Virus record (IMG/VR): IMGVR_UViG_3300046001_006965
Location: 18,970 to 82,969 of that record
Strand: one strand, 5' to 3'
DNA from: a virus
DNA: 64,000 bases
Below the pieces are notes generated by a model that ran no database searches, had not been told where the DNA came from, and saw nothing but the letters and a program-made list of their open reading frames with translations. The stretch's first letter is position 1. The number at the start of each line of letters is the position of its first letter. Positions 3,826-20,967 of this stretch are shown here, in pieces. A program made the translations under genes and the position numbers.

Positions 3826-3899
3826 TTGTTGCGGATGTCGGACTCGAACCGATCTAATAGGTTATGAGCCTACTGTGCTAGCCATTACACTACACCGCG
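3826..3899 (-). tRNA. tRNA-Met(CAU)-like gene, imperfect stems (possibly initiator-like or pseudo)
   Basis: Reverse strand CGCGGTG-TA-GTGTAATGGCTAGCAC-A-GTAGG-CTCATAA-CCTAT-TAGA-TCGG-TTCGAGT-CCGA-CATCCGCA-ACAA. Confidence 0.75.
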
Positions 3900-4517: not shown

Positions 4518-4559
4518 TCAAAAGTAACATATTTTACAATATAATTGCAAAATATGTTA
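4518..4559 (-). promoter_or_regulatory. Bacteroidota sigma-A promoter overlapped by 35-bp operator (copy 1)
   Basis: Minus-strand -7 box TACTTTTG; TAACATATT-N17-AATATGTTA at 4525-4559. Confidence 0.65.
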
Positions 4560-4577
4560 TTAATTAGTTAAAAAAAG

Positions 4578-7082: not shown

Positions 7083-7123
7083 CAAATGTAACAAAATATG
7101 TTATTACATTGCAAAATATGTTA
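7083..7123 (-). promoter_or_regulatory. Promoter plus 35-bp operator (copy 2)
   Basis: -7 box TACATTTG; TAACAAAAT-N17-AATATGTTA at 7089-7123. Confidence 0.65.
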
Positions 7124-7130
7124 TAATAGA

Positions 7131-7155
7131 AAAGCCACTTGCAGTAAGTGGCTTT
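7131..7155. terminator. Intrinsic terminator
   Basis: AAAGCCACTTG-cag-TAAGTGGCTTT hairpin. Confidence 0.65.
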
Positions 7156-9337: not shown

Positions 9338-9784
9338 TTAATTAAATTCAAGTCTCGTTTGATATTTTCCTGCGTAACCTTTGTCTTGGCACATTTTTAT
9401 AAAAACTGGAGGCGTAACGGCTTTTAATTTTTGATCATCAATAATTAATCTTTCGATATCTCGATAATAGAAAACCAAAAATCTTTTGAATGCTGGCCTG
9501 AAATAGTAATTTATGTATTCTTCTATCTCTAAATCTGTCATTTCACGACTTTGAATATATTCCCAATTGTTTTCAACTCCGGTTCTTCTGGTCATAAATG
9601 GATCAGTATTTATAATTAATGCAATTTGCTTTTTTTGGCTGCTTTCTTTATTATAAAAACCATAGGTTACAGTGAATTTTTTATTTTTGATTTGCTTTTT
9701 TAGGAAGCTAAATTCCTCTGGATCAAAATCTATGTTTATGTCTTTTTCCCATAAATCATAGTATCGCTTTGTGTTTTCAGTCAT
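9338..9784 (-). CDS. Hypothetical protein
   Basis: 148-aa ORF. Confidence 0.6.
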   Translation of the reverse strand: MTENTKRYYDLWEKDINIDFDPEEFSFLKKQIKNKKFTVTYGFYNKESSQKKQIALIINTDPFMTRRTGVENNWEYIQSREMTDLEIEEYINYYFRPAFKRFLVFYYRDIERLIIDDQKLKAVTPPVFIKMCQDKGYAGKYQTRLEFN

Positions 9785-12479: not shown

Positions 12480-12988
12480 TAGGCAAATAGATCTATTTGT
12501 TCCGCTTCGGTTGCCGGTTTCTTTTTGGCTGCCTTTGCAACTAATTTTTCTTTTTGCTCCGATACTACTTTTTCGATTGCTTGATTTTTAGCATCCTGTA
12601 AATCTTCTTCCGATAGTTTAATCTTTTTAGAAAGGGTTTTCTTCGCTTCTACTTTTGCTTCCTCGATCAACAAATCCATTGCTTTTTCTTTGGCTAATGC
12701 TTTATCTTCTTCGGTCAATTCAACGCTATGATTGACGATTGCTTTTCCGGAGACTGGTTTGATGTTTTTGATGTCGTCTTCATCGTAGTAATGAACTGCC
12801 CAGCCAAATACCTCATCATCGGAATAACCGCCACAATCACCGTCCTTTGCGCACTTCATTACATAGCTGCAGCATTCGTCCAGATTTTTGTTTTCTTTTT
12901 GGTAGGTAACAGCGAAGAGTTCATCTTCAGATGCTCTTTTGTCAAGGTAAGCCTTGATGGTTTCTTTAAATGCGTTTGATGTTTTCAT
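12479..12988 (-). CDS. PcfK-like / AcrIIA9-family protein
   Basis: FKETIKAYLDKRASEDELFA...DDEVFGWAVHYYDED; C-terminal QIDLF. Confidence 0.8.
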   Translation of the reverse strand: MKTSNAFKETIKAYLDKRASEDELFAVTYQKENKNLDECCSYVMKCAKDGDCGGYSDDEVFGWAVHYYDEDDIKNIKPVSGKAIVNHSVELTEEDKALAKEKAMDLLIEEAKVEAKKTLSKKIKLSEEDLQDAKNQAIEKVVSEQKEKLVAKAAKKKPATEAEQIDLFA

Positions 12989-13029
12989 TTTACTCGTTTT
13001 TAAAATTTGATTGTTAATTAAAACGCAAA

Positions 13030-13113
13030 TGAGCTATAAATTCCCAACGTCTCACTTTTGGTTCATTACAGCTCAATGCTATGCTTTAAGTTTCGTAATG
13101 TGAGACGGAAACT
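13030..13113 (-). ncRNA. Structured leader A (two hairpins with complementary loops)
   Basis: Loops CGUCUCAC and GUGAGACG; see finding. Confidence 0.55.
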
Positions 13114-13136
13114 GTTTTGTAAATATATAAAATCAA

Positions 13137-13171
13137 TAACATATTTTGCAAGTTTATAACCTAATATGTTA
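13137..13171 (-). promoter_or_regulatory. 35-bp operator (copy 3)
   Basis: TAACATATT-N17-AATATGTTA. Confidence 0.65.
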
Positions 13172-13193
13172 TTGTTCTAAATAAGATATGGAG

Positions 13194-13631
13194 CTATAAT
13201 CCCCAAATTAGCATCATTGCATCACGCTGCTCTTGATTGGTTCTTTCTTTTATTTTGGTAATCTGCTCAAAAAATTTTGAATCTGTTTTAGATTTCGTTG
13301 GTTTTACTTGTGTAAATGGTAGTTTCAAGAACTCGCACATTTCGCAAATTTTCTTAGCTATCTCGTGATTTGCTCCAACCCGCTCACTTATTTTTCCATT
13401 AAAAGCTGTGGAAGCTGCTGCTTTGAAATGCCTGTTTCCTCCGTTCAGAAATCCACATTCTACATACACCATCACCTCGTAATCTAAATATTCTGGTGTG
13501 TTTTTTATAAAATAAAGCATTTGCAAAAGCTCGAAAAACTTTAAATTTTTAAGCTGTATTTTTTTGCCTGATTTCAAGGCAAACCCAGATTTATCGGTGT
13601 CAGGATCTATGCCTATAAGTATTTTTCCCAT
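13194..13631 (-). CDS. RuvC-like (RNase H fold) resolvase/nuclease
   Basis: LIGIDPD, VYVE, EQRDAMMLI. Confidence 0.6.
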   Translation of the reverse strand: MGKILIGIDPDTDKSGFALKSGKKIQLKNLKFFELLQMLYFIKNTPEYLDYEVMVYVECGFLNGGNRHFKAAASTAFNGKISERVGANHEIAKKICEMCEFLKLPFTQVKPTKSKTDSKFFEQITKIKERTNQEQRDAMMLIWGL

Positions 13632-13633
13632 AA

Positions 13634-13999
13634 TTAAAAAATTGATTTTTCTTCAAAAGATTCGCATTTGTTTGGCATAGGTTCTTGTTCTTGAAAGGTT
13701 TCATATTTTTTATGAAGTCCTCTTTTTTCAATAGAAAAAGGAAACATTAATTTATCTAATTTTGAACATTTAAAAACTTTTACCATTTTATCTGTGTAAT
13801 CAACTTCTCCATATCCGCAATACGTTTCAAAAGAAACTTCTTTTTGTATTTTTTCTAAATGTTCGCAAAAGTGACAGGCTTTTTTATTGGCTGGATTTTG
13901 ATCGCATTTCAATTCGTGGTTGATCATTGCGTGTTTTCGCTTCAATTCTTTTTTACAAAAATCACATTTGTAAATGGTTACGTTTTCGATTGTTTTCAT
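13634..13999 (-). CDS. Cys-rich zinc-binding hypothetical protein
   Basis: CDFC...HELKC, CHFC. Confidence 0.65.
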   Translation of the reverse strand: MKTIENVTIYKCDFCKKELKRKHAMINHELKCDQNPANKKACHFCEHLEKIQKEVSFETYCGYGEVDYTDKMVKVFKCSKLDKLMFPFSIEKRGLHKKYETFQEQEPMPNKCESFEEKSIF

Positions 14000-14011
14000 T
14001 TTGTAATAGAA

Positions 14012-14752
14012 TTAAAATTTATAATCTCCTTTTATTACTAATCTTTTTTGTCTCAAGTAATTCAGAAAAGGTTGCATTTCGGTTTTCTTTTCCCAATCGA
14101 TAATGGTATCTTCCAGCATTTGTCGGTCCATATTTTGAACCATTTCATCTATTTCCTGATGCATCTGTGCCTCTTTTTCCTTTCGTAATTTTTCAGCTTT
14201 TCTTTTTTCGTAGAACTGATGAACGGCATTGCTTCGAATATCATTTTCAGTTTGGGTGCTGCTGGTTTCTCTCTCTTTGATTCGCTCAAATTCAATGTAT
14301 TTTTTTTCGAGATATTCCGGCATCCATTTTACAAGCACGTTTTGTCCATCAAGTTTGTAATCTTTACCGTCTCCCAGAATGCCTTGACGAACTTGTTTGA
14401 GCATCAACACAACGTCTTCGATAGTTTCATAAGGATATTTTTCGGCGATATCCGCTGCCAGCAAAGCTGACTGTGTTGCAGAAAGTGATTTTCCAACATT
14501 GAAATTTGCATTAAATCTGTTGAGCAAATAACAAATGGCGGTTATGGTGCCAATTTCTCCAACTGTTTTTTCTAGTTTTTTAAGTGTGGTACCGTCAATG
14601 GCTTTTATCAAACTTAGATTTTTCTCAAAAACAATTAATCCAACTTCGTTATTAGCCGCCAAACATTGCATTAACTGCATTGACTGCTGATTGCTTATGG
14701 TTAGCATCTGCTCTTTGTGAATTGAGACTTCGTACATTTTCTCTGTTTCCAT
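14012..14752 (-). CDS. Hypothetical replication-associated protein
   Basis: Directly downstream of the initiator, in the loader position. Confidence 0.6.
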   Translation of the reverse strand: METEKMYEVSIHKEQMLTISNQQSMQLMQCLAANNEVGLIVFEKNLSLIKAIDGTTLKKLEKTVGEIGTITAICYLLNRFNANFNVGKSLSATQSALLAADIAEKYPYETIEDVVLMLKQVRQGILGDGKDYKLDGQNVLVKWMPEYLEKKYIEFERIKERETSSTQTENDIRSNAVHQFYEKRKAEKLRKEKEAQMHQEIDEMVQNMDRQMLEDTIIDWEKKTEMQPFLNYLRQKRLVIKGDYKF

Positions 14753-15578
14753 AATTATCTTCTAAAATTTTTAAAAAATTGGCTGGTTTGAAAATCCAAT
14801 CAAAACTAGCCGTCCAGTTATCTTTGTTGTCGCCCTGCAGAAATGGGGAATCTCTCGTTTTTTGAATTACGTTCTGAATTGATTCTTTGCCGTATTGTTT
14901 TTCCAACAGCTGAATTCTTTTTTTCCTGACATCTGACATTTTTTTTACTTCAGGTAAAAGCCCCCGGTTTGAATTAAAAAAAGAAAGAAGTTTATCAAAA
15001 TCAATCTTGTGGGTTGGAAGTTGATTTGGAAAATCAACAACTCCGTTAGGAGTATATTTTTCTTTTGTTTTCTCTTCTATAATTTCCTCTTCTATACTAT
15101 ACTCTTCTTTTCTTTGCGGATAACTTCCGGCAATCTCCCGCGGATTGACCTCTTTTTTGGGGCAATCTCCCGCGGATTGACCTCTTTTTTGCCTTATTTT
15201 GTCCAATATGTCGGAGTATTGAAACATTTCTGTTTTTCTTTTTCGATAAGCATCTTGAATACTGTCGGCAAATTTTTGACTGTAAATCACTTTGTAATCA
15301 TCAAAAAGAGCTTTGTCAATTGCTCCTAATTTTGCCAAATCATTTAAAATCGAAAGTGTTTTTTCTTCGTCAATTTTAAAAATAGAATTCAGAAACATTA
15401 AGGTCATTTCATCTGAAGCATCTATGTAATGATTATTGGCCTTTCCCAGCTGTTCTAATAGCTTAAACCAGGTTGCATACCCATCATTACCGTATTTTGT
15501 TTCTATGATGTGCATTTTGCGTCCGTGAGTACAATCGTGTGGAAAATAATCAACATCTTTTCTTTGTTCTCTAGCCAT
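14652..15578 (-). CDS. Phage replication initiator (DUF4373/Lin1244-like N-terminus)
   Basis: DYFPHD...YGNDGYA; C-terminal SPFLQGDN..W.ASFDWIFKPANFLKILE; internal direct repeats. Confidence 0.8.
   Translation of the reverse strand: MAREQRKDVDYFPHDCTHGRKMHIIETKYGNDGYATWFKLLEQLGKANNHYIDASDEMTLMFLNSIFKIDEEKTLSILNDLAKLGAIDKALFDDYKVIYSQKFADSIQDAYRKRKTEMFQYSDILDKIRQKRGQSAGDCPKKEVNPREIAGSYPQRKEEYSIEEEIIEEKTKEKYTPNGVVDFPNQLPTHKIDFDKLLSFFNSNRGLLPEVKKMSDVRKKRIQLLEKQYGKESIQNVIQKTRDSPFLQGDNKDNWTASFDWIFKPANFLKILEDNYGNRENVRSLNSQRADANHKQSAVNAVNAMFGG
15129..15191. repeat. Two 31-bp direct repeats (iterons, putative origin)
   Basis: GGCAATCTCCCGCGGATTGACCTCTTTTTTG at 15129 and 15161. Confidence 0.85.
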
Positions 15579-15586
15579 AATAATTT

Positions 15587-16735
15587 CTACTTTTTAAAAG
15601 GTACGTTTGTGAGTTGTCTTCCGTTGTTCCAGATGGCAAAACGACCTTCAGTATCAACTTCAATTTTCATTGTTTCAATCTTGCCAAATTGGTTGAGATT
15701 GCCTCCTAAATCTACCACCCACGCATTTTGTTTGTTGGGATGAATTCGCATGGCACGGCCTACAATTTGATAGAACAAAGACAACGACATCGTGGATCTG
15801 GCCATCAATACTGCTTCGAGTTCCGGATAATCAAACCCGGTGGTTAAAACACCCACATTTACCACGCATTTTATAATTCCTTTTTTGAATCTTGAAAGGA
15901 TGCGTTCGCGTTCTTCTTTCTTGGTATCCGATGTCAATAGAACGGCTCCCGGAATGCGTTTTACCACTTCTTTGGCTTCGGTGATCAAAGCGCAAAAAAT
16001 TAGAAGATTTGGCTTTTTTGACAGCACGTAAAAAGCATATTTTACAATCCGGCTGGGCATATCGATTGACTTGTAATACCGACTTAGTGAAGCGGTTGTA
16101 AAATCGGTTCCTGAACTGTTTAATTCTAGTTTTGAGCGATCAATTACATCAAAGGAGTAATACTCTAGCTTTGCCAAAAATCCAGCGTCAAACAGCGTAT
16201 TATTTTGAACGTAATACAGAATTTTATTAAAAATTCGTGGAGTGCTTCGGGTCAGGAATGTTAGCTGTGGTCCTTCGCTTGTTTGCGACAAACGATATGG
16301 TGTGGCGGTTAATCCCAACACATTGGCATCCGGAAAATGATTGATGAATTCCTGATACATTCCACCGTCTGAATTAACCAAATGACATTCGTCGATTAGT
16401 ATGTTTTTCAGTCCGGCAAACAAATGTTTTTTGTTGATGATGCTGCCAATGGTGCAAAAAGTGACGCGACCAATTATCTTTTCGCCAGCTGATGCGCTGT
16501 AGATGGATGCTTTGCCATATTTGGAATACTTCTCATAGTTCTGTTCCAGGATCTCTTTCGAGGGCTGGAGGATGATTGTTTTACCCTCCAGCGGTGCTAC
16601 TAAGTTGGCAATAACAATAGATTTTCCAGCGCCTGTTGGCAGGACAATTACAGCATTGTCATTTGACTTTCCCTGTAAATATTCCACTCCTAAACGTGTT
16701 GAATCTGCTTGATAAGGCCTTAATTGAAATCCCAT
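15587..16735 (-). CDS. SF2 DExH helicase (RadD/YejH-like)
   Basis: LRPYQ, PTGAGKS, DECH, LTATP, LTTGFD, QIVGRAMR. Confidence 0.92.
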   Translation of the reverse strand: MGFQLRPYQADSTRLGVEYLQGKSNDNAVIVLPTGAGKSIVIANLVAPLEGKTIILQPSKEILEQNYEKYSKYGKASIYSASAGEKIIGRVTFCTIGSIINKKHLFAGLKNILIDECHLVNSDGGMYQEFINHFPDANVLGLTATPYRLSQTSEGPQLTFLTRSTPRIFNKILYYVQNNTLFDAGFLAKLEYYSFDVIDRSKLELNSSGTDFTTASLSRYYKSIDMPSRIVKYAFYVLSKKPNLLIFCALITEAKEVVKRIPGAVLLTSDTKKEERERILSRFKKGIIKCVVNVGVLTTGFDYPELEAVLMARSTMSLSLFYQIVGRAMRIHPNKQNAWVVDLGGNLNQFGKIETMKIEVDTEGRFAIWNNGRQLTNVPFKK

Positions 16736-16737
16736 CC

Positions 16738-17340
16738 TTAAACGGCTTGTGATTCATCATCGAATTTTGCATTATCAAAAGAGGCATCTTCTGAAGCAAA
16801 ATCCATGTGCAATTGTTCTGGTTGTGGAGCTGATTTTCCGTTCATGTAAAACTCAACCTCTTTGATGGCATTATCTAAAATAGCAGTCAATTGAGTCAAA
16901 TAAAGATAGGCTCCGTTTAGTTTTACTTTTGGAGCACTAAACTTAATTACTCCATTTGTCACTTCTTTGTAACCTGATAAAATCAAAGCTCTGTTTTCCT
17001 CTACTCCAGATATTGAAAAAGCATTCACGAAATATTTTTCTGTTTCAACTTCTTCTTCAAGAAATGATAATTCGGTTGCATTATCATTACCCGTGTAGGC
17101 ATCATCCAAGTGTGCCAGGAACACATCAAACTTATCGAATGCTATTTCTAAATCTTCGTGAACGATGTGTTTTCCGTTTCTTGAAAGTCCATCGCCTTTA
17201 GTCTTTCCGGTTAATAATTCGTAGGAATAATTGCAAAGAGCATCTTTGAGCGAAGCGCTTTTTATTTCTACATCTTTTTGAACTTGATCTGCTAATCCTA
17301 ATTTTTCTGTAAGGATTGTGAAAACTTTTTCTTTTGACAT
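16738..17340 (-). CDS. Hypothetical protein
   Basis: 200-aa acidic ORF. Confidence 0.65.
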   Translation of the reverse strand: MSKEKVFTILTEKLGLADQVQKDVEIKSASLKDALCNYSYELLTGKTKGDGLSRNGKHIVHEDLEIAFDKFDVFLAHLDDAYTGNDNATELSFLEEEVETEKYFVNAFSISGVEENRALILSGYKEVTNGVIKFSAPKVKLNGAYLYLTQLTAILDNAIKEVEFYMNGKSAPQPEQLHMDFASEDASFDNAKFDDESQAV

Positions 17341-17349
17341 GGTGGTTAT

Positions 17350-17769
17350 TTAATTAAAAATTGATATTTGGTTTCTGTTTTGTTGCGATGCATTGGCCTG
17401 TTGTATCAGGCTGTATTCTTTGCTTATCCAAACTCGCAACGGTCTTTGGTGGGCTTCTTTATTGGTGCTTTTTTGGGTTCTTTCGGTATCGAAAATCAAA
17501 TGTCTTTTTGATAATTTTCTGAAAGGAACTCCAAAAACACTTGGTTGTGATGGAGGTGCATTTCCTGAATTAAAAAATGCCTTTTTCAGATCATCTGCAG
17601 TGAATGGTTTCATCTGTGTTTTTACCCAATTTTCGGCAAAAGCGCAAAGTTTATCGCAATAGACTTTGTTGTTTACTTCTACATCTTCGACGGCTTGGTT
17701 GGTTACTTGGAATGGTGTCATAATTTTTTTTTGTTTTAAAAAGATTCCTTTTCTTTGAATAAAGAGCAA
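17350..17769 (-). CDS. Hypothetical protein (winged-helix-like; start probably MTPFQ)
   Basis: Coupled ORF, ends QISIFN. Confidence 0.55.
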   Translation of the reverse strand: MLFIQRKGIFLKQKKIMTPFQVTNQAVEDVEVNNKVYCDKLCAFAENWVKTQMKPFTADDLKKAFFNSGNAPPSQPSVFGVPFRKLSKRHLIFDTERTQKSTNKEAHQRPLRVWISKEYSLIQQANASQQNRNQISIFN

Positions 17770-17942
17770 GCAGCATCTTTACATTTAATTTTTAATAGTC
17801 CATTATTGGTTCTGTTTGATTTCCTGATACCACAATACTGAAACACCTTTGAATTACATTCCCATCGTTGGCGGTGTTCACAATCTCTACAAGTATTTGT
17901 TGGTTTTGAAACCTGCTCTTCAAATTCAAATAGATTAACCAT
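17736..17942 (-). CDS. Small Cys-rich protein
   Basis: CRDCEH...YC...C..AC. Confidence 0.6.
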   Translation of the reverse strand: MVNLFEFEEQVSKPTNTCRDCEHRQRWECNSKVFQYCGIRKSNRTNNGLLKIKCKDAACSLFKEKESF

Positions 17943-18324
17943 TAAAAGATTGCATTTCAGCTTTCGCTTTTGATATTAAAGTTCTGCACCAGTCTAGTTG
18001 GTGTGTACATGATGCATTTAATCTTGTTGCCCAAGTCAATAAGTAATTTTCATTTTCAACTAATGTATCTGTAAATTTTACTGCAACACTGGGTGGAAGG
18101 GCAACTATCTTTTTAATTTCTGAAACTATATCACTCCTTAATTTACGGTCCTTATGAATTTTAGAATCAGCTAGAAGTTTTCCGGTTCTTGCCATATAAA
18201 CTGATAATGTATTTCCTCTATAGACAGCCTCGTTAGCATCTTCACTCATTTCTATTTCAAGAAATTCCTGTATAGTTATTAGTTCTTTTTTAATTTCAGA
18301 TAGGCTTGTTACTAAGTCATTCAT
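17935..18324 (-). CDS. Hypothetical helical protein
   Basis: Coupled ORF. Confidence 0.65.
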   Translation of the reverse strand: MNDLVTSLSEIKKELITIQEFLEIEMSEDANEAVYRGNTLSVYMARTGKLLADSKIHKDRKLRSDIVSEIKKIVALPPSVAVKFTDTLVENENYLLTWATRLNASCTHQLDWCRTLISKAKAEMQSFNG

Positions 18325-18330
18325 CTTTTT

Positions 18331-18597
18331 TTAATTTTTGTAACCGTTAAAAGCCATTACTTGATCTTCTGGAATAAGGAATTTCACTACTGCCGTCAAT
18401 CCCCTAAAAAATCTTCTTTTCTGGGTAAGCGACTGAATAATTCCTTGATGCTTTTTAATCCTGGCATCATATTTTTTAGCATAATGTTTACTGAGCTCTA
18501 TTTCAAAAAGCAAGTAATTAATGCCGTTCAGCGTGTGTACAATTTTTTCACTCATAATTCGGTGGCTTTTTTGATTGCTGATTTTGCTTTGTCCCAA
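18331..18597 (-). CDS. Hypothetical protein (start probably MSEKI)
   Basis: Coupled ORF. Confidence 0.5.
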   Translation of the reverse strand: MGQSKISNQKSHRIMSEKIVHTLNGINYLLFEIELSKHYAKKYDARIKKHQGIIQSLTQKRRFFRGLTAVVKFLIPEDQVMAFNGYKN

Positions 18598-18842
18598 GCA
18601 ATGTGATTCCTATCTGAGATTTTAACTACTTCTATTAATGCTTCCAGTAATTCCGGGGCTGCTGCGATTAGCTTGGCGTTTGATTTTGAAACGCTTTCAC
18701 AAATAAGGTTTCCACCATAATACTCAATGGCATCTTCGCCAACCGAACCTCTTATAGAAAGTGATTCATCATTTTTAGAAATAACACAACTATTATATTT
18801 GCCTATTTCCCACGGTCCTTTTGTTCCTTTAAATTCTGCCAT
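18552..18842 (-). CDS. Conserved phage hypothetical protein
   Basis: TKGPW...NAKLIAAAPELLEAL family motif. Confidence 0.75.
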   Translation of the reverse strand: MAEFKGTKGPWEIGKYNSCVISKNDESLSIRGSVGEDAIEYYGGNLICESVSKSNAKLIAAAPELLEALIEVVKISDRNHIAWDKAKSAIKKATEL

Positions 18843-18844
18843 AA

Positions 18845-19585
18845 CTAAAAAGGTGTTTTATTAAAATTAATTTTCATACCGTTACTCGCCACGGTGACGT
18901 TTTTTCCTGTGAGTTCTGCCACTTCTTTTTGAAATTGTTTTTCATCTGAATTGCTGTCTGAAAGATGTATCAAAACGATGTTGTTGACTTTCGTTAGATC
19001 ATTGGCAGCCAACATATCCTTGCAGTTGGCCAGCGAGAAATGAGATCTTAAAATCCGGTTTCTCAAAAATTCCTTTCCAGAATCAGCTCCAAACTTTCTG
19101 TCGATGATTTCCTTTGAGAAATTGGCTTCGATAATGATATTATTCAATCCCTTGAAAGTATATTCACAATAGTAGGTATCGGTCAGGAAAAGCACCTTTC
19201 CACAATCAGGATGCTCGATCAAGAACCCCAAAGGTTCCGCTGCATCGTGTTTCACATCGAAAGCCATTACCTTGAAGTTTCCAATTTGTACCGTTTGTCT
19301 GGGTTTGATTGCCGTGGCTCTTGGAAGTGAAAAAACAAAGCGTTTTTCCAATGTTCCGGCAGAAGCATACATATCAATTCCCAACTTTATCACATCATAA
19401 ATGGCTTTGGAGTGGTCAAAGTGTTCGTGTGTACAAAGACAACCAACCACTTTTGACAAATCAAAATTCAAGGCCTGTTTTATGTCCTTGATGTTTACAC
19501 CACACTCGATAAGCAAAGCCTCATTCTCGTTTCCAAGAATGTAGGCATTACCCTTTGAGCCAGTTCCTATTATGTTAAGATTCAT
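18845..19585 (-). CDS. Metallo-beta-lactamase-fold nuclease
   Basis: GSKGN, THEHFDH, HDAAEP, TDT, IEAN, HLS. Confidence 0.9.
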   Translation of the reverse strand: MNLNIIGTGSKGNAYILGNENEALLIECGVNIKDIKQALNFDLSKVVGCLCTHEHFDHSKAIYDVIKLGIDMYASAGTLEKRFVFSLPRATAIKPRQTVQIGNFKVMAFDVKHDAAEPLGFLIEHPDCGKVLFLTDTYYCEYTFKGLNNIIIEANFSKEIIDRKFGADSGKEFLRNRILRSHFSLANCKDMLAANDLTKVNNIVLIHLSDSNSDEKQFQKEVAELTGKNVTVASNGMKINFNKTPF

Positions 19586-19687
19586 CTGATTTAGATTTAA
19601 TAATTGAAAGACATATAACTATAAATACTGCAACAGCAAAGGCGGTATCTTTATGCCTTTCAATTGTTATGAAAAAAATTTCCATAA

Positions 19688-20560
19688 TTAGAAGTTTGGA
19701 CCTGCAGGAGTTTCTTCAAATTCCAATTTTTCGGAAACCACTGTTTCAGGATCTACCACCACCGCATCTTCGATGTTGTTTTCGAAATCCAAACTTTGCT
19801 TGTTGGCTTTGGTTTTGATTTCGTGTTGAACGTCTAATGCTGGTTTGTCTGAAAGTAATCCTTTGTCACTTGAAGAAGATGTTTCAATTTTAAGAGATCT
19901 TGCAATTACTGTTTTTTCACACATCTGGTCAGGAAATTTATTATGTGCCGGTGAATTCCCTTTTGCTCCACCCATTGACCAGGATGTTTTTATTTGGTCA
20001 ATTGTCATTATTTCAGAATCTGAACTTCCATCATTGTATGTAACAATTGCATAGGCGCCTACAATTTTATCATTGGCAATGTTTGCCAATTTTTGATTGT
20101 GTTTTGTGACATTTTTTCTTCCTGTAGAAAAATCAACTGAATATTCAAATTCGTCATCTTTATAAACAGTCACAGCATTCACTTCTTTAACATTTGCAAC
20201 CCTTTTGGCTATTGCAATATCTCCAATATATGATTGGTCAAACTGGAGCTTATTCCCATAAACAACAAAGTATCCTTGCTTTTTTGAAACACTTAAACCG
20301 CTTGTTACCATATCAAGAAAAGCATTTGCAATGCTTTCTTTGGTACAAACTTCAAGTGCTGGATTTCCTCCTCTATCCACTACTCCTTGTAATACCAACC
20401 AAGCGGCTCTAACTGCGTTTTCAGGAACATAATCAGATGGTAAAACGATCTCTCCTGTGGCTTGTATTTCGGCTATTCTGGACAATACACTATTTACAGT
20501 TGCTTCGGTAAATTTGTTTGTCTTTTTTTCTACTACTTGTACATTTTCTGTTGTGCTCAT
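19688..20560 (-). CDS. recT: RecT-family single-strand annealing recombinase
   Basis: CTKESIANA, QGYFVVYG, IVGAYA, DQMCEKTVI. Confidence 0.88.
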   Translation of the reverse strand: MSTTENVQVVEKKTNKFTEATVNSVLSRIAEIQATGEIVLPSDYVPENAVRAAWLVLQGVVDRGGNPALEVCTKESIANAFLDMVTSGLSVSKKQGYFVVYGNKLQFDQSYIGDIAIAKRVANVKEVNAVTVYKDDEFEYSVDFSTGRKNVTKHNQKLANIANDKIVGAYAIVTYNDGSSDSEIMTIDQIKTSWSMGGAKGNSPAHNKFPDQMCEKTVIARSLKIETSSSSDKGLLSDKPALDVQHEIKTKANKQSLDFENNIEDAVVVDPETVVSEKLEFEETPAGPNF

Positions 20561-20579
20561 TTTTTTAAAATTTGATTGT

Positions 20580-20795
20580 TTATAATTCTATTACTAATTG
20601 ATTACTGTTTATGATGGCTTCACACCTCACGAATTCAAGGTCAAAGGCTTGGGATTCGATTTCTTTTTTGGTATTTTGATTGTGTTTGCAGTTGGCGGTG
20701 CAATCAAAACTTCCAATTGTAATTCCTTTGTTTACCTTGCAATTTGCCAATAGATGACCGTCTTTGTTGCGTGGTATTTTGGTTTTATTTTCCAT
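20580..20795 (-). CDS. Hypothetical protein (start MENKTK)
   Basis: ORF following structured leader B. Confidence 0.55.
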   Translation of the reverse strand: MENKTKIPRNKDGHLLANCKVNKGITIGSFDCTANCKHNQNTKKEIESQAFDLEFVRCEAIINSNQLVIEL

Positions 20796-20809
20796 TTTAA
20801 AATAAAAAT

Positions 20810-20891
20810 GCCTTCGAAAAATCAATTACCGTCCGACGGGCAATCTCTTTTAAGAAGGCTAAAAGTTTAAAGTTCTACTGTCGGACGAACT
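20810..20891 (-). ncRNA. Structured leader B (two hairpins with complementary loops)
   Basis: Loops GUCCGAC and GUCGGAC; same architecture as leader A. Confidence 0.55.
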
Positions 20892-20915
20892 ACTTTGTAA
20901 ATATACAAATTAAAA

Positions 20916-20950
20916 TAACATATTTTGCAATTAAATAACTAAATATGTTA
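20916..20950 (-). promoter_or_regulatory. 35-bp operator (copy 4)
   Basis: TAACATATT-N17-AATATGTTA. Confidence 0.65.
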
Positions 20951-20967
20951 TTATTTTTTAGCATCCA

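Follow-up and report, generated by a model that had tools for sequence, protein, structure and literature searches.

A family of leader RNAs with a covarying loop-loop helix in Flavobacterium phages

In leader (attenuator) intrinsic terminators, and in the pR'-6S RNA-tR' arrangement of phage lambda, the promoter opens onto a short structured leader, behind which come a G+C-based hairpin with a U-run and then the genes. The put RNA of phage HK022 consists of two stem-loops directly downstream of early, repressor-controlled promoters and acts on RNA polymerase. Kissing-loop and H-type pseudoknot folds are known from ColE1 RNAI/RNAII, HIV-1 DIS and phi29 pRNA and are mostly intermolecular. The present analysis concerns two leader RNAs, A and B, in a 64,000-nt stretch of viral DNA (the window, bases 18970-82969 of the IMG/VR virus record IMGVR_UViG_3300046001_006965, which comprises 82,969 bases in total), and the family of phage leaders to which they belong. 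Each is a predicted ~95-nt 5' leader of a phage early transcript, located between a promoter and the first gene. In both, a 5' hairpin (H1) is followed by a long two-part hairpin (H2) with a U-run at its end, and the apical loops of the two hairpins are complementary to each other. All leader coordinates in the window refer to the minus strand.

Complementarity within a single transcript is a feature of P1 c4 RNA, and also of P4 CI RNA and of IsrK of Gifsy-1 (PMC4825925). In these systems, complementary parts of one transcript form pairs that differ between elements, and the species acting in trans is a small RNA, released by processing or termination, whose sites lie near a ribosome-binding site or terminator. 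In T4-type phages, PeSLs are small modules of a promoter and a stem-loop that are repeated in the genome and are found at indels and synteny breakpoints; they are described as composites of a terminator and a promoter (PMC4122927), the stem-loop being simple and the promoter a T4 early one. The leaders described here share features with these nearest systems and are a member of none of them. We place them as a new RNA family, here called the Flavobacterium-phage kissing-loop leader, among the structured leaders already known from phages.

Paired hairpin loops in two leaders and their relatives

H1 of leader A (13089-13113) has a 6-bp stem, AGTTTC/GAAACT, and a 13-nt loop, CGTCTCACATTAC, whose kissing segment CGTCTCAC occupies 13107-13100. 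H2 of the same leader (13030-13075) is composed of a 10-bp outer stem (TGAGCTGTAA/TTATAGCTCA), a 4x4 internal loop and a 4-bp inner stem (CCAA/TTGG), which carries a 10-nt loop, AAGTGAGACG, with the kissing segment GTGAGACG at 13055-13048. In leader B, H1 (20871-20891) has a 5-bp stem, AGTTC/GAACT, and an 11-nt loop, GTCCGACAGTA, with the kissing segment GTCCGAC at 20886-20880. The stems GCCTTC/GAAGGC, AAAA/TTTT and ATTGCC/GGTAAT make up its H2 (20810-20859), at the top of which an 8-nt loop, CGTCGGAC, contains the kissing segment GTCGGAC at 20837-20831. The two loops are reverse complements over 8 nt in leader A and over 7 nt in leader B, in agreement with the original prediction, which had claimed 7-8 nt. 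The positions and hairpins that it gave for both leaders were likewise confirmed, by re-reading the minus strand and by minimum-free-energy folds: each leader folded alone yields exactly both hairpins.

The folding z-scores of leaders A and B are about -2.6, and 2-3 of 200 shuffled sequences fold equally well. When loop 2 was shuffled, the observed complementary run was reached in 51 of 100,000 cases for leader A and in 188 of 100,000 for leader B; over leaders A, B and D the range is 40 to 188 per 100,000. The corresponding figure for leader L161a, 269 of 100,000, is inexact, as its loop 2 was parsed too long. Among four distinct leaders, the loops of the same leader pair in runs of 7-8 nt and mismatched loops in runs of 2-3 nt. 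A chance origin of the loop complementarity is excluded by these shuffles and loop comparisons together with the covariation in 35 sequences described below.

Members of the family were collected with a scan for the ends of H2 and the U-run only (TAGCCT N36-50 AGGCATTTTTATTT), in which H1 and the loops were left unspecified. It returned 39 viral loci. An upstream hairpin (within 60 nt) whose loop is complementary over 6-9 nt to the middle of H2 is present in 32 of them, and the remaining seven are unrelated sequence (L330, L331, L338, L339, L341, L352 and L360). A near-identical copy of leader A occurs in contig L137. Contig L161 contains a third leader, with the loops GATCCTAC/GTAGGATC, and 400 nt upstream of it a fourth, with the loops GGTCGGAA/TTCCGACC.

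A covariance model, R3, was built from a MAFFT alignment of 35 leaders. At E values up to 0.01 it finds 35 leaders from 31 sources, a count that excludes the duplicates L333, L345, L349, L357 and L279 as well as the seven non-member loci. Leader A is matched at 13025-13115 with 35.9 bits (E=1.5e-4) and leader B at 20804-20893 with 71.9 bits (E=6e-13). Two matches at E values of 0.04-0.09, L324:356-426 and L355:2430-2519(+), have neither a kissing pair nor an H1 and were rejected.

Pairing was evaluated in two alignments. The first, A8, is a MAFFT alignment of 35 sequences that was fitted to no structure. In A8, 86.4% of 1007 cells pair, compared with 64.8 +/- 1.0 in shuffles (none of 500 reaches the observed value) and with 34-48% when the 3' partners are slid, and 24 of the 30 pairs show changes on both sides. 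For the kissing helix, 90.6% of the cells are paired and seven of the eight pairs have changed on both sides. H1 is paired in only 72% of its cells, because MAFFT placed the 3' arm of H1 in two registers. The second alignment, A10, was fitted by the model to H1 and H2; the kissing helix, which is beyond what a covariance model can represent, was left unfitted. Pairing in A10 reaches 90.9% overall, with 81.6% in H1, 94.7-96.4% in the outer stem of H2 and 88.5% in its inner stem; the kissing helix is paired in 93.9% of the cells, again with changes on both sides in seven of eight pairs. RNAalifold, applied to A8, recovers unaided the H2 outer stem together with three pairs at the start of the inner stem.

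At least 18 different kissing sequences occur in the family, with complementarity kept. The covariation that had been proposed from leaders A and B, namely that the pairing persists while the sequences differ, is therefore upheld on the 35-sequence alignments. The structure, including the loop-loop helix, is established as far as sequence comparison allows, and we consider it very probable that the leaders form a real structured RNA family with such a helix.

The family had been suspected to be an unnamed motif, to be examined with a covariance model and by comparison with Rfam. Both approaches bear this out, since the motif is found in many phage copies and has no match in Rfam 15. At the gathering threshold, Rfam 15 returns two tRNAs only for the whole window. 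For leader A and both L161 leaders, matches at E values up to 10 are far-sub-threshold chance matches, and for five member loci there is no match at the leaders at E values up to 1. Literature searches returned no description of the motif. In the main text of the paper on the hattifnatt and snusmum phages (PMC7077304), which are introduced below as carriers, the words promoter, terminator, stem-loop and intergenic are absent.

Promoter, hairpins and tail of the module

Across the family, the lengths of the individual parts are nearly constant while their sequences vary. A TAnnTT(T/C/A)(G/A) box is present within 22 nt upstream of the model start in 32 of the 35 copies, and 19 copies have the strict form TAnnTTTG, which we take to be the Bacteroidetes -7 element. 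The three copies that lack the box are divergent members in which the model start is misplaced. In 32 of 35 copies the gap between the -7 box and H1 measures 2-8 nt; H1 would therefore lie at the 5' end of the RNA. It is followed by an A-rich spacer of approximately 8-13 nt and by H2, which has an outer stem of 9-11 bp with a G+C-rich base, a roughly symmetric internal loop of 3-5 nt per side, an inner stem of 4-6 bp and, at its top, an 8-10-nt loop.

The kissing helix of 7-9 nt joins the 5' part of loop 1 to the 3' part of loop 2. In loop 1, 0-1 nt separates the paired part from the 5' arm of H1, and 4-9 residues, mostly A/U, come after it; in loop 2, the paired part is preceded by 1-2 residues and ends 0-1 nt from the 3' arm of the inner stem. 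From this placement we infer, on geometric grounds, that the kissing helix could be stacked end to end between the stem of H1 and the inner stem of H2. An alternative pairing in leader A, between CAUUAC in loop 1 and GUAAUG in an arm of H2, was considered as an antiterminator and is absent from leader B and the L161 leaders on inspection. In one leader subtype (L327, L332, L358 and L359), H1 is G+C-rich and nearly all of its 6-8-nt loop takes part in the kissing helix. The kissing sequences of this subtype are TGGTGG, CTGGAAG, CTGGAAC and CGTCCAG, and its H2 contains GGGG/CCC-rich inner parts.

The base of the H2 stem is G+C-rich in every subtype (GCC/GGC, GCCC/GGGGC or GAGCT/AGCTC), in leaders with a G+C content of 29-43%. 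All 35 copies have a U-run 0-1 nt after H2, and all have 8-11 T in the 14-nt tail window after the leader. The U-run is also present in the copies that were found without a U-run criterion, i.e. leaders A and B, the two L161 leaders, L343b, L336b and the second copy in the hattifnatt phage. The first ATG is located 5-36 nt after the modelled end of the leader (median 12), with 25 of 35 copies at 8-16 nt. Four of the five cases at 5 nt belong to very short open reading frames (ORFs) and are probably not real starts.

In the window, both leaders directly follow an operator copy and a shared box, as originally predicted: the operator word TTGCAAAATATGTTATT and the box TATATTTACAAA are found immediately upstream of each. 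Leader A is preceded by an operator-like palindrome at 13135-13173 (AATAACATAT..ATATGTTATT), which includes a -33-like TTG and has an exact TTGCAAAATATGTTATT at 13135-13151. Its TAnnTTTG-like -7 box (13116-13127) ends 2 nt upstream of H1. The palindrome before leader B (20914-20952) has an exact TTGCAAAATATGTTATT at 20914-20930 and its opposite half at 20936-20952, and the -7 box of this promoter is at 20894-20905. Downstream of H2 of leader A is the tail TTTGCGTTTT; the region 12989-13029 comprises the U-rich TTTGCGTTTTAATT and an A/U-rich stretch up to the PcfK start codon at 12988. The tail of leader B is ATTTTTATTTT; here the U-run ATTTTTATTTTAAA (20796-20809) adjoins H2, and the ATG of a 71-aa ORF is at 20795.

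With up to three mismatches, TTGCAAAATATGTTATT has nine matches in the window against 1.5 expected, and it is exact at 4545 (plus strand), 13135 and 20914 (both minus strand). Two further operator copies are found on the plus strand at 4523-4561 and 7089-7125. Each is doubled, and neither leads into a kissing-loop leader. A plain terminator-like hairpin is located at 7131-7155 on the minus strand, beside the latter copy. The heptamer GTCCGAC of leader B also occurs at 3837-3843, in the T-arm of a phage tRNA gene (3830-3898), probably by chance.

Other searches added few copies or none. The promoter-tied scan TATATTTACAAANNAGTT gave two true members among the approximately 80 matches listed. 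With TTTACAAANNAGTTN{5,11}ACAKTAN{0,4}RAACT, two of three viral contigs, one of 18 metagenome contigs and none of four genome contigs were true, and all 16 loci found with TATATTTACAAANNAGTTN{10,22}AACT were known already. The operator word alone has 66 loci, among which no new leader type was found and a leader is present in L137 only; approximately ten others are operator regions of related phages without a leader. Model R1, built from leader A only, missed leader B even with the filters off, and model R2 scored leader B at 20.8 bits, which is at noise level. Applied to 35 records of PcfK or operator relatives, R2 matched only two, both already known, and in 22 RecT loci it found nothing. 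MAFFT aligned H2 inconsistently when only 4-5 divergent leaders were given. A loose descriptor of two hairpins was non-specific, with many matches in A/T-rich DNA; combined with geometry rules (outer stem of at least 10 bp, T-run), it returned only known members in approximately 2 Mb. R3 found nothing in 151 Flavobacteriaceae genomes, with 28 candidates per genome scored.

Carriers, neighbouring genes and probable mobility

Carriers of the leader include Flavobacterium siphoviruses. Locus L345 is 100% identical to the cultured Flavobacterium phage vB_FspS_hattifnatt9-1, and the snusmum phages have the same leader at 98.6% identity (BLAST). In hattifnatt9-1 (L362, NC_048832.1) the leader, at positions 9370-9464, is part of the gap that precedes the helicase gene gp34. 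The annotated start of gp34 at 9441 falls within H2; the ATG at 9477 (MTDYEKF...) matches the spacing of the family and is the likelier start. A second, divergent copy precedes the NUMOD4 endonuclease gene gp41 (13398-13877) and has the kissing pair GTCGTCG/CGACGAC. This copy was read by eye, R3 giving one match in hattifnatt9-1; in the two complete phage records searched with R3, one and two copies were found. For the window phage, megablast revealed no close cultured relative, and the RecT matches obtained by tblastn are below 60% identity everywhere.

According to Pfam, leader A is followed by genes for PcfK, PcfJ and three beta-clamp domains, and leader B by the 71-aa ORF, RecT and a metallo-beta-lactamase-fold protein. 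The operons originally named downstream of the leaders are supported to the extent that Pfam gives PcfK, PcfJ and the beta clamp after leader A and RecT after leader B. Elsewhere in the family the downstream genes are different. Homing-endonuclease-like proteins account for seven of 20 downstream products (four HNH_3 with NUMOD4 and/or AP2, one HNH and two GIY-YIG). The others are one SNF2/DEAD helicase, one helicase-methylase fusion, one each of AAA_24, pentapeptide-repeat and DUF6378, one sub-threshold DUF5125 and seven products without a family. Further helicase starts after the leader are visible in L362, L336 and L359. The leader is often found before a free-standing homing endonuclease gene (L326, L343, L324, L346, L340, L353 and L325, as well as gp41 by annotation). 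A control specific to anti-defence and recombination genes, as originally inferred, does not agree with this range, given that the same leader precedes helicases, homing endonucleases and other unrelated genes.

The PcfK and RecT operons also occur in close relatives that lack the leader. In L010 (82% identity in PcfK), the PcfK start region directly follows the upstream gene, with no leader between them. In contigs from two other sequencing runs, X3 and X4, window position 12988 is joined to 13195, with 35 other nucleotides in place of 12989-13194, and cassette A is missing; L137 has cassette A at the same site. Cassette B is absent from RecT relatives of 71-84% identity and is present, together with its ORF, in L334, as well as in one X4 contig. 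Judged from these alignments, both window copies appear to be insertions, and promoter, leader and start region appear to travel as one module. The operator palindrome is not part of the family elsewhere, and the hattifnatt promoter has none. In the temperate window phage, it seems, two copies of a general module have come under the control of the phage's own repressor.

Cassette A lies between two copies of a 9-bp direct repeat, TTATAGCTC, on the minus strand. The first copy, within 13189-13205, belongs to a small hairpin (TGGGG..CTCCA, followed by a T-rich tail) where the upstream resolvase-like gene has its stop codon. The second, at 13032-13040, is the 3' arm of H2, and the arrangement is the same in L137. 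The repeat suggests insertion by short-homology recombination. In hattifnatt9-1, homology with the mumin and mymlan phages ends at query base 969, approximately 38 nt upstream of the leader (L345:5800-8000), and the leader module sits at a synteny breakpoint. Contigs of related phages (runs X3, X4 and X6) also skip or replace several other stretches of the early operon, at window positions 13631-14277 and 17295-18839 (for example, 13631 to 14010 and 17723 to 18332), and the region is a mosaic.

Relation to described systems and possible function

With attenuators and lambda pR'-6S RNA-tR', the leaders have in common the order of promoter, structured leader, G+C-based hairpin with U-run, and genes. 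They differ in that the hairpin is long and two-part, that its apical loop is paired to a preceding 5'-terminal hairpin, that a competing antiterminator helix and a known antitermination factor are both lacking, and that several copies per genome stand before unrelated genes. As in HK022 put, two stem-loops follow right after early, repressor-controlled phage promoters, whereas put has neither loop-loop pairing nor a terminator. The loop-loop helix resembles kissing-loop folds in its Watson-Crick pairing over 6-9 nt, in a paired segment that abuts one stem on each side, and in being kept by compensatory change. Unlike the contacts of ColE1, HIV-1 DIS and phi29, it is most simply intramolecular, within a 5' leader.

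As in P4 CI and P1 c4, complementary segments of the same transcript covary between elements. Here, however, the segments are the apical loops of adjacent hairpins in one predicted fold, and loop 2 is located atop a terminator-like hairpin and not at a start codon. The likeness to P1 C4 and P4 CI that had been pointed out holds for the complementarity within one transcript; beyond this, the comparison is conceptual only. With the PeSLs, the leaders share a composite, repeated module (two copies in the window) and a location at indels of close relatives. Neither a T4-type early promoter nor a T4-like phage is involved: the box is TAnnTTTG-like and carriers include Flavobacterium siphoviruses. 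Where PeSLs have a simple stem-loop, the present modules open with a Bacteroidetes-type promoter, and behind it lie two hairpins that a covarying loop-loop helix connects.

As to function, a leader terminator (attenuator) is tentatively put forward as the first choice, with a 5' stabiliser as the main rival. H2 and the U-run would act as an intrinsic terminator within the leader, so that most of the promoter's output would be a short RNA, with read-through into the gene limited to a set fraction of transcripts. By keeping the weak, large-looped top of H2 closed, the kissing helix would allow the long hairpin to form in time to terminate, and occupation of loop 1 by anything would lead to more read-through. 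Actual termination at this terminator-like hairpin, and the part assigned here to the kissing helix, are our inferences. The attenuator is preferred because every subtype has a G+C-rich base of H2 in leaders that are A/T-rich as a whole, and because the run of 5-9 U adjoins H2 even in copies found without that criterion. H2 thereby has the G+C-rich stem base and the immediate U-run of an intrinsic terminator.

A number of points weigh against the attenuator. Intrinsic terminators have a compact hairpin with a short loop; H2, with its 46-50 nt, internal loop and 8-10-nt apical loop, is no textbook terminator and is not called by a consensus terminator scan (loop of 3-8). A helicase gene or the clamp operon, if placed behind a strong terminator, would depend on read-through or on an antiterminator; no antiterminator was found, no search having been made for one. 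The kissing helix competes with neither stem, so that the usual terminator/antiterminator logic is missing. The tight start-codon distance and the A/U-rich tail fit a translation-start module equally well. Furthermore, the family was derived from one pattern plus seeds, which biases its breadth and consensus, and the invariant TAGCCT..AGGCATTTTTATTT of 32 members was imposed by the search pattern and does not represent conservation. The term 'switch' in the original prediction is unproven, as no conserved alternative pairing was found and the loop-loop helix is compatible with both hairpins simultaneously.

5'-terminal stem-loops are known to stabilise bacterial mRNAs. The leader could accordingly be a stabiliser of the 5' untranslated region and an insulator of the start region that works without termination, a reading we regard as somewhat unlikely. 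The pseudoknotted 5' fold would block 5'-end-dependent decay and keep the A/U-rich start region single-stranded whatever gene follows, which would make it a portable expression leader. The position of H1, 2-8 nt after the -7 box and hence 5'-terminal, would be expected of such a leader, as would the narrow start-codon distance and the occurrence of the module in front of unrelated genes. A plain hairpin would suffice for this purpose, however, and the G+C clamp at the base of H2, the run of 5-9 U that immediately follows it and the loop-loop helix are left unexplained.

Returning to the attenuator, a more far-reaching version of it would make the loop-loop helix the working part of a new kind of terminator, in which termination or bypass is set by the docking of H1 on the loop of H2. 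Each promoter module would then have a private code for the level of read-through into its gene, and this self-contained unit of promoter, leader and start region would spread between Flavobacterium phages with free-standing homing endonuclease genes. This version is unlikely.

Less likely still is a small RNA gene, in which a terminated RNA of ~95 nt would pair in trans, via loop 1 or loop 2, with nascent copies of the leader or with other RNAs. Such genes are built in the same way, from a promoter with a terminator-like hairpin behind it, and IsrK of Gifsy-1 and P4 CI RNA offer models: according to PMC4825925, the short IsrK acts on a read-through form from the same promoter, and P4 CI RNA pairs with seqA and seqC, which results in premature termination. 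In addition, the kissing sequences of the two copies differ in all five genomes that have two (window, L161, L343, L336 and hattifnatt); two random codes would differ in about nine of ten cases by a rough estimate, though, so that five of five is not significant. The loops are complementary within one molecule at a distance of ~45 nt, where intramolecular pairing should win, and the constant lengths of spacer, stems and loops point to a single folded unit. Elsewhere in the 83-kb record the loop 7-8-mers occur as often as expected by chance, and none of these sites is a convincing second target, one of them being that in the tRNA T-arm.

A purely DNA-level cassette is very improbable. Here the inverted repeats would serve a mobile promoter cassette in protein binding or recombination, as has been proposed for PeSLs, and the RNA fold would be incidental. 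The presence or absence of both cassettes among close relatives, the repeat TTATAGCTC around cassette A and its L137 copy, the homology between hattifnatt and mumin/mymlan that stops shortly before the leader, the homing endonuclease genes that often come next, and the PeSLs as composite terminator/promoter sequences implicated in indels (PMC4122927) would all suit it. Mobility is compatible with an RNA function, and protein sites leave unexplained the compensatory changes in four nested helices and a crossing, pseudoknot-type fifth helix on one strand. The repeat sequences are free and complementarity is kept, which is the signature of a single-stranded fold.

The leaders add a well-supported structured RNA family to the Bacteroidota phages, whose gene regulation is little studied. 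Their fold is unusual in that a 5'-terminal hairpin is docked on the tip of a terminator-like hairpin. Direct experiments are possible, since hattifnatt9-1 and snusmum are cultured carriers with known hosts, Flavobacterium sp. LMO6 and LMO9. For annotation, the module marks early promoters and recombination breakpoints, and it reveals that the hattifnatt helicase is annotated to start within the RNA structure. The module may also explain how the downstream genes stay at a tolerable level. If it is true that the loop-loop contact controls termination, the leaders would represent a new regulatory principle and a compact programmable part.

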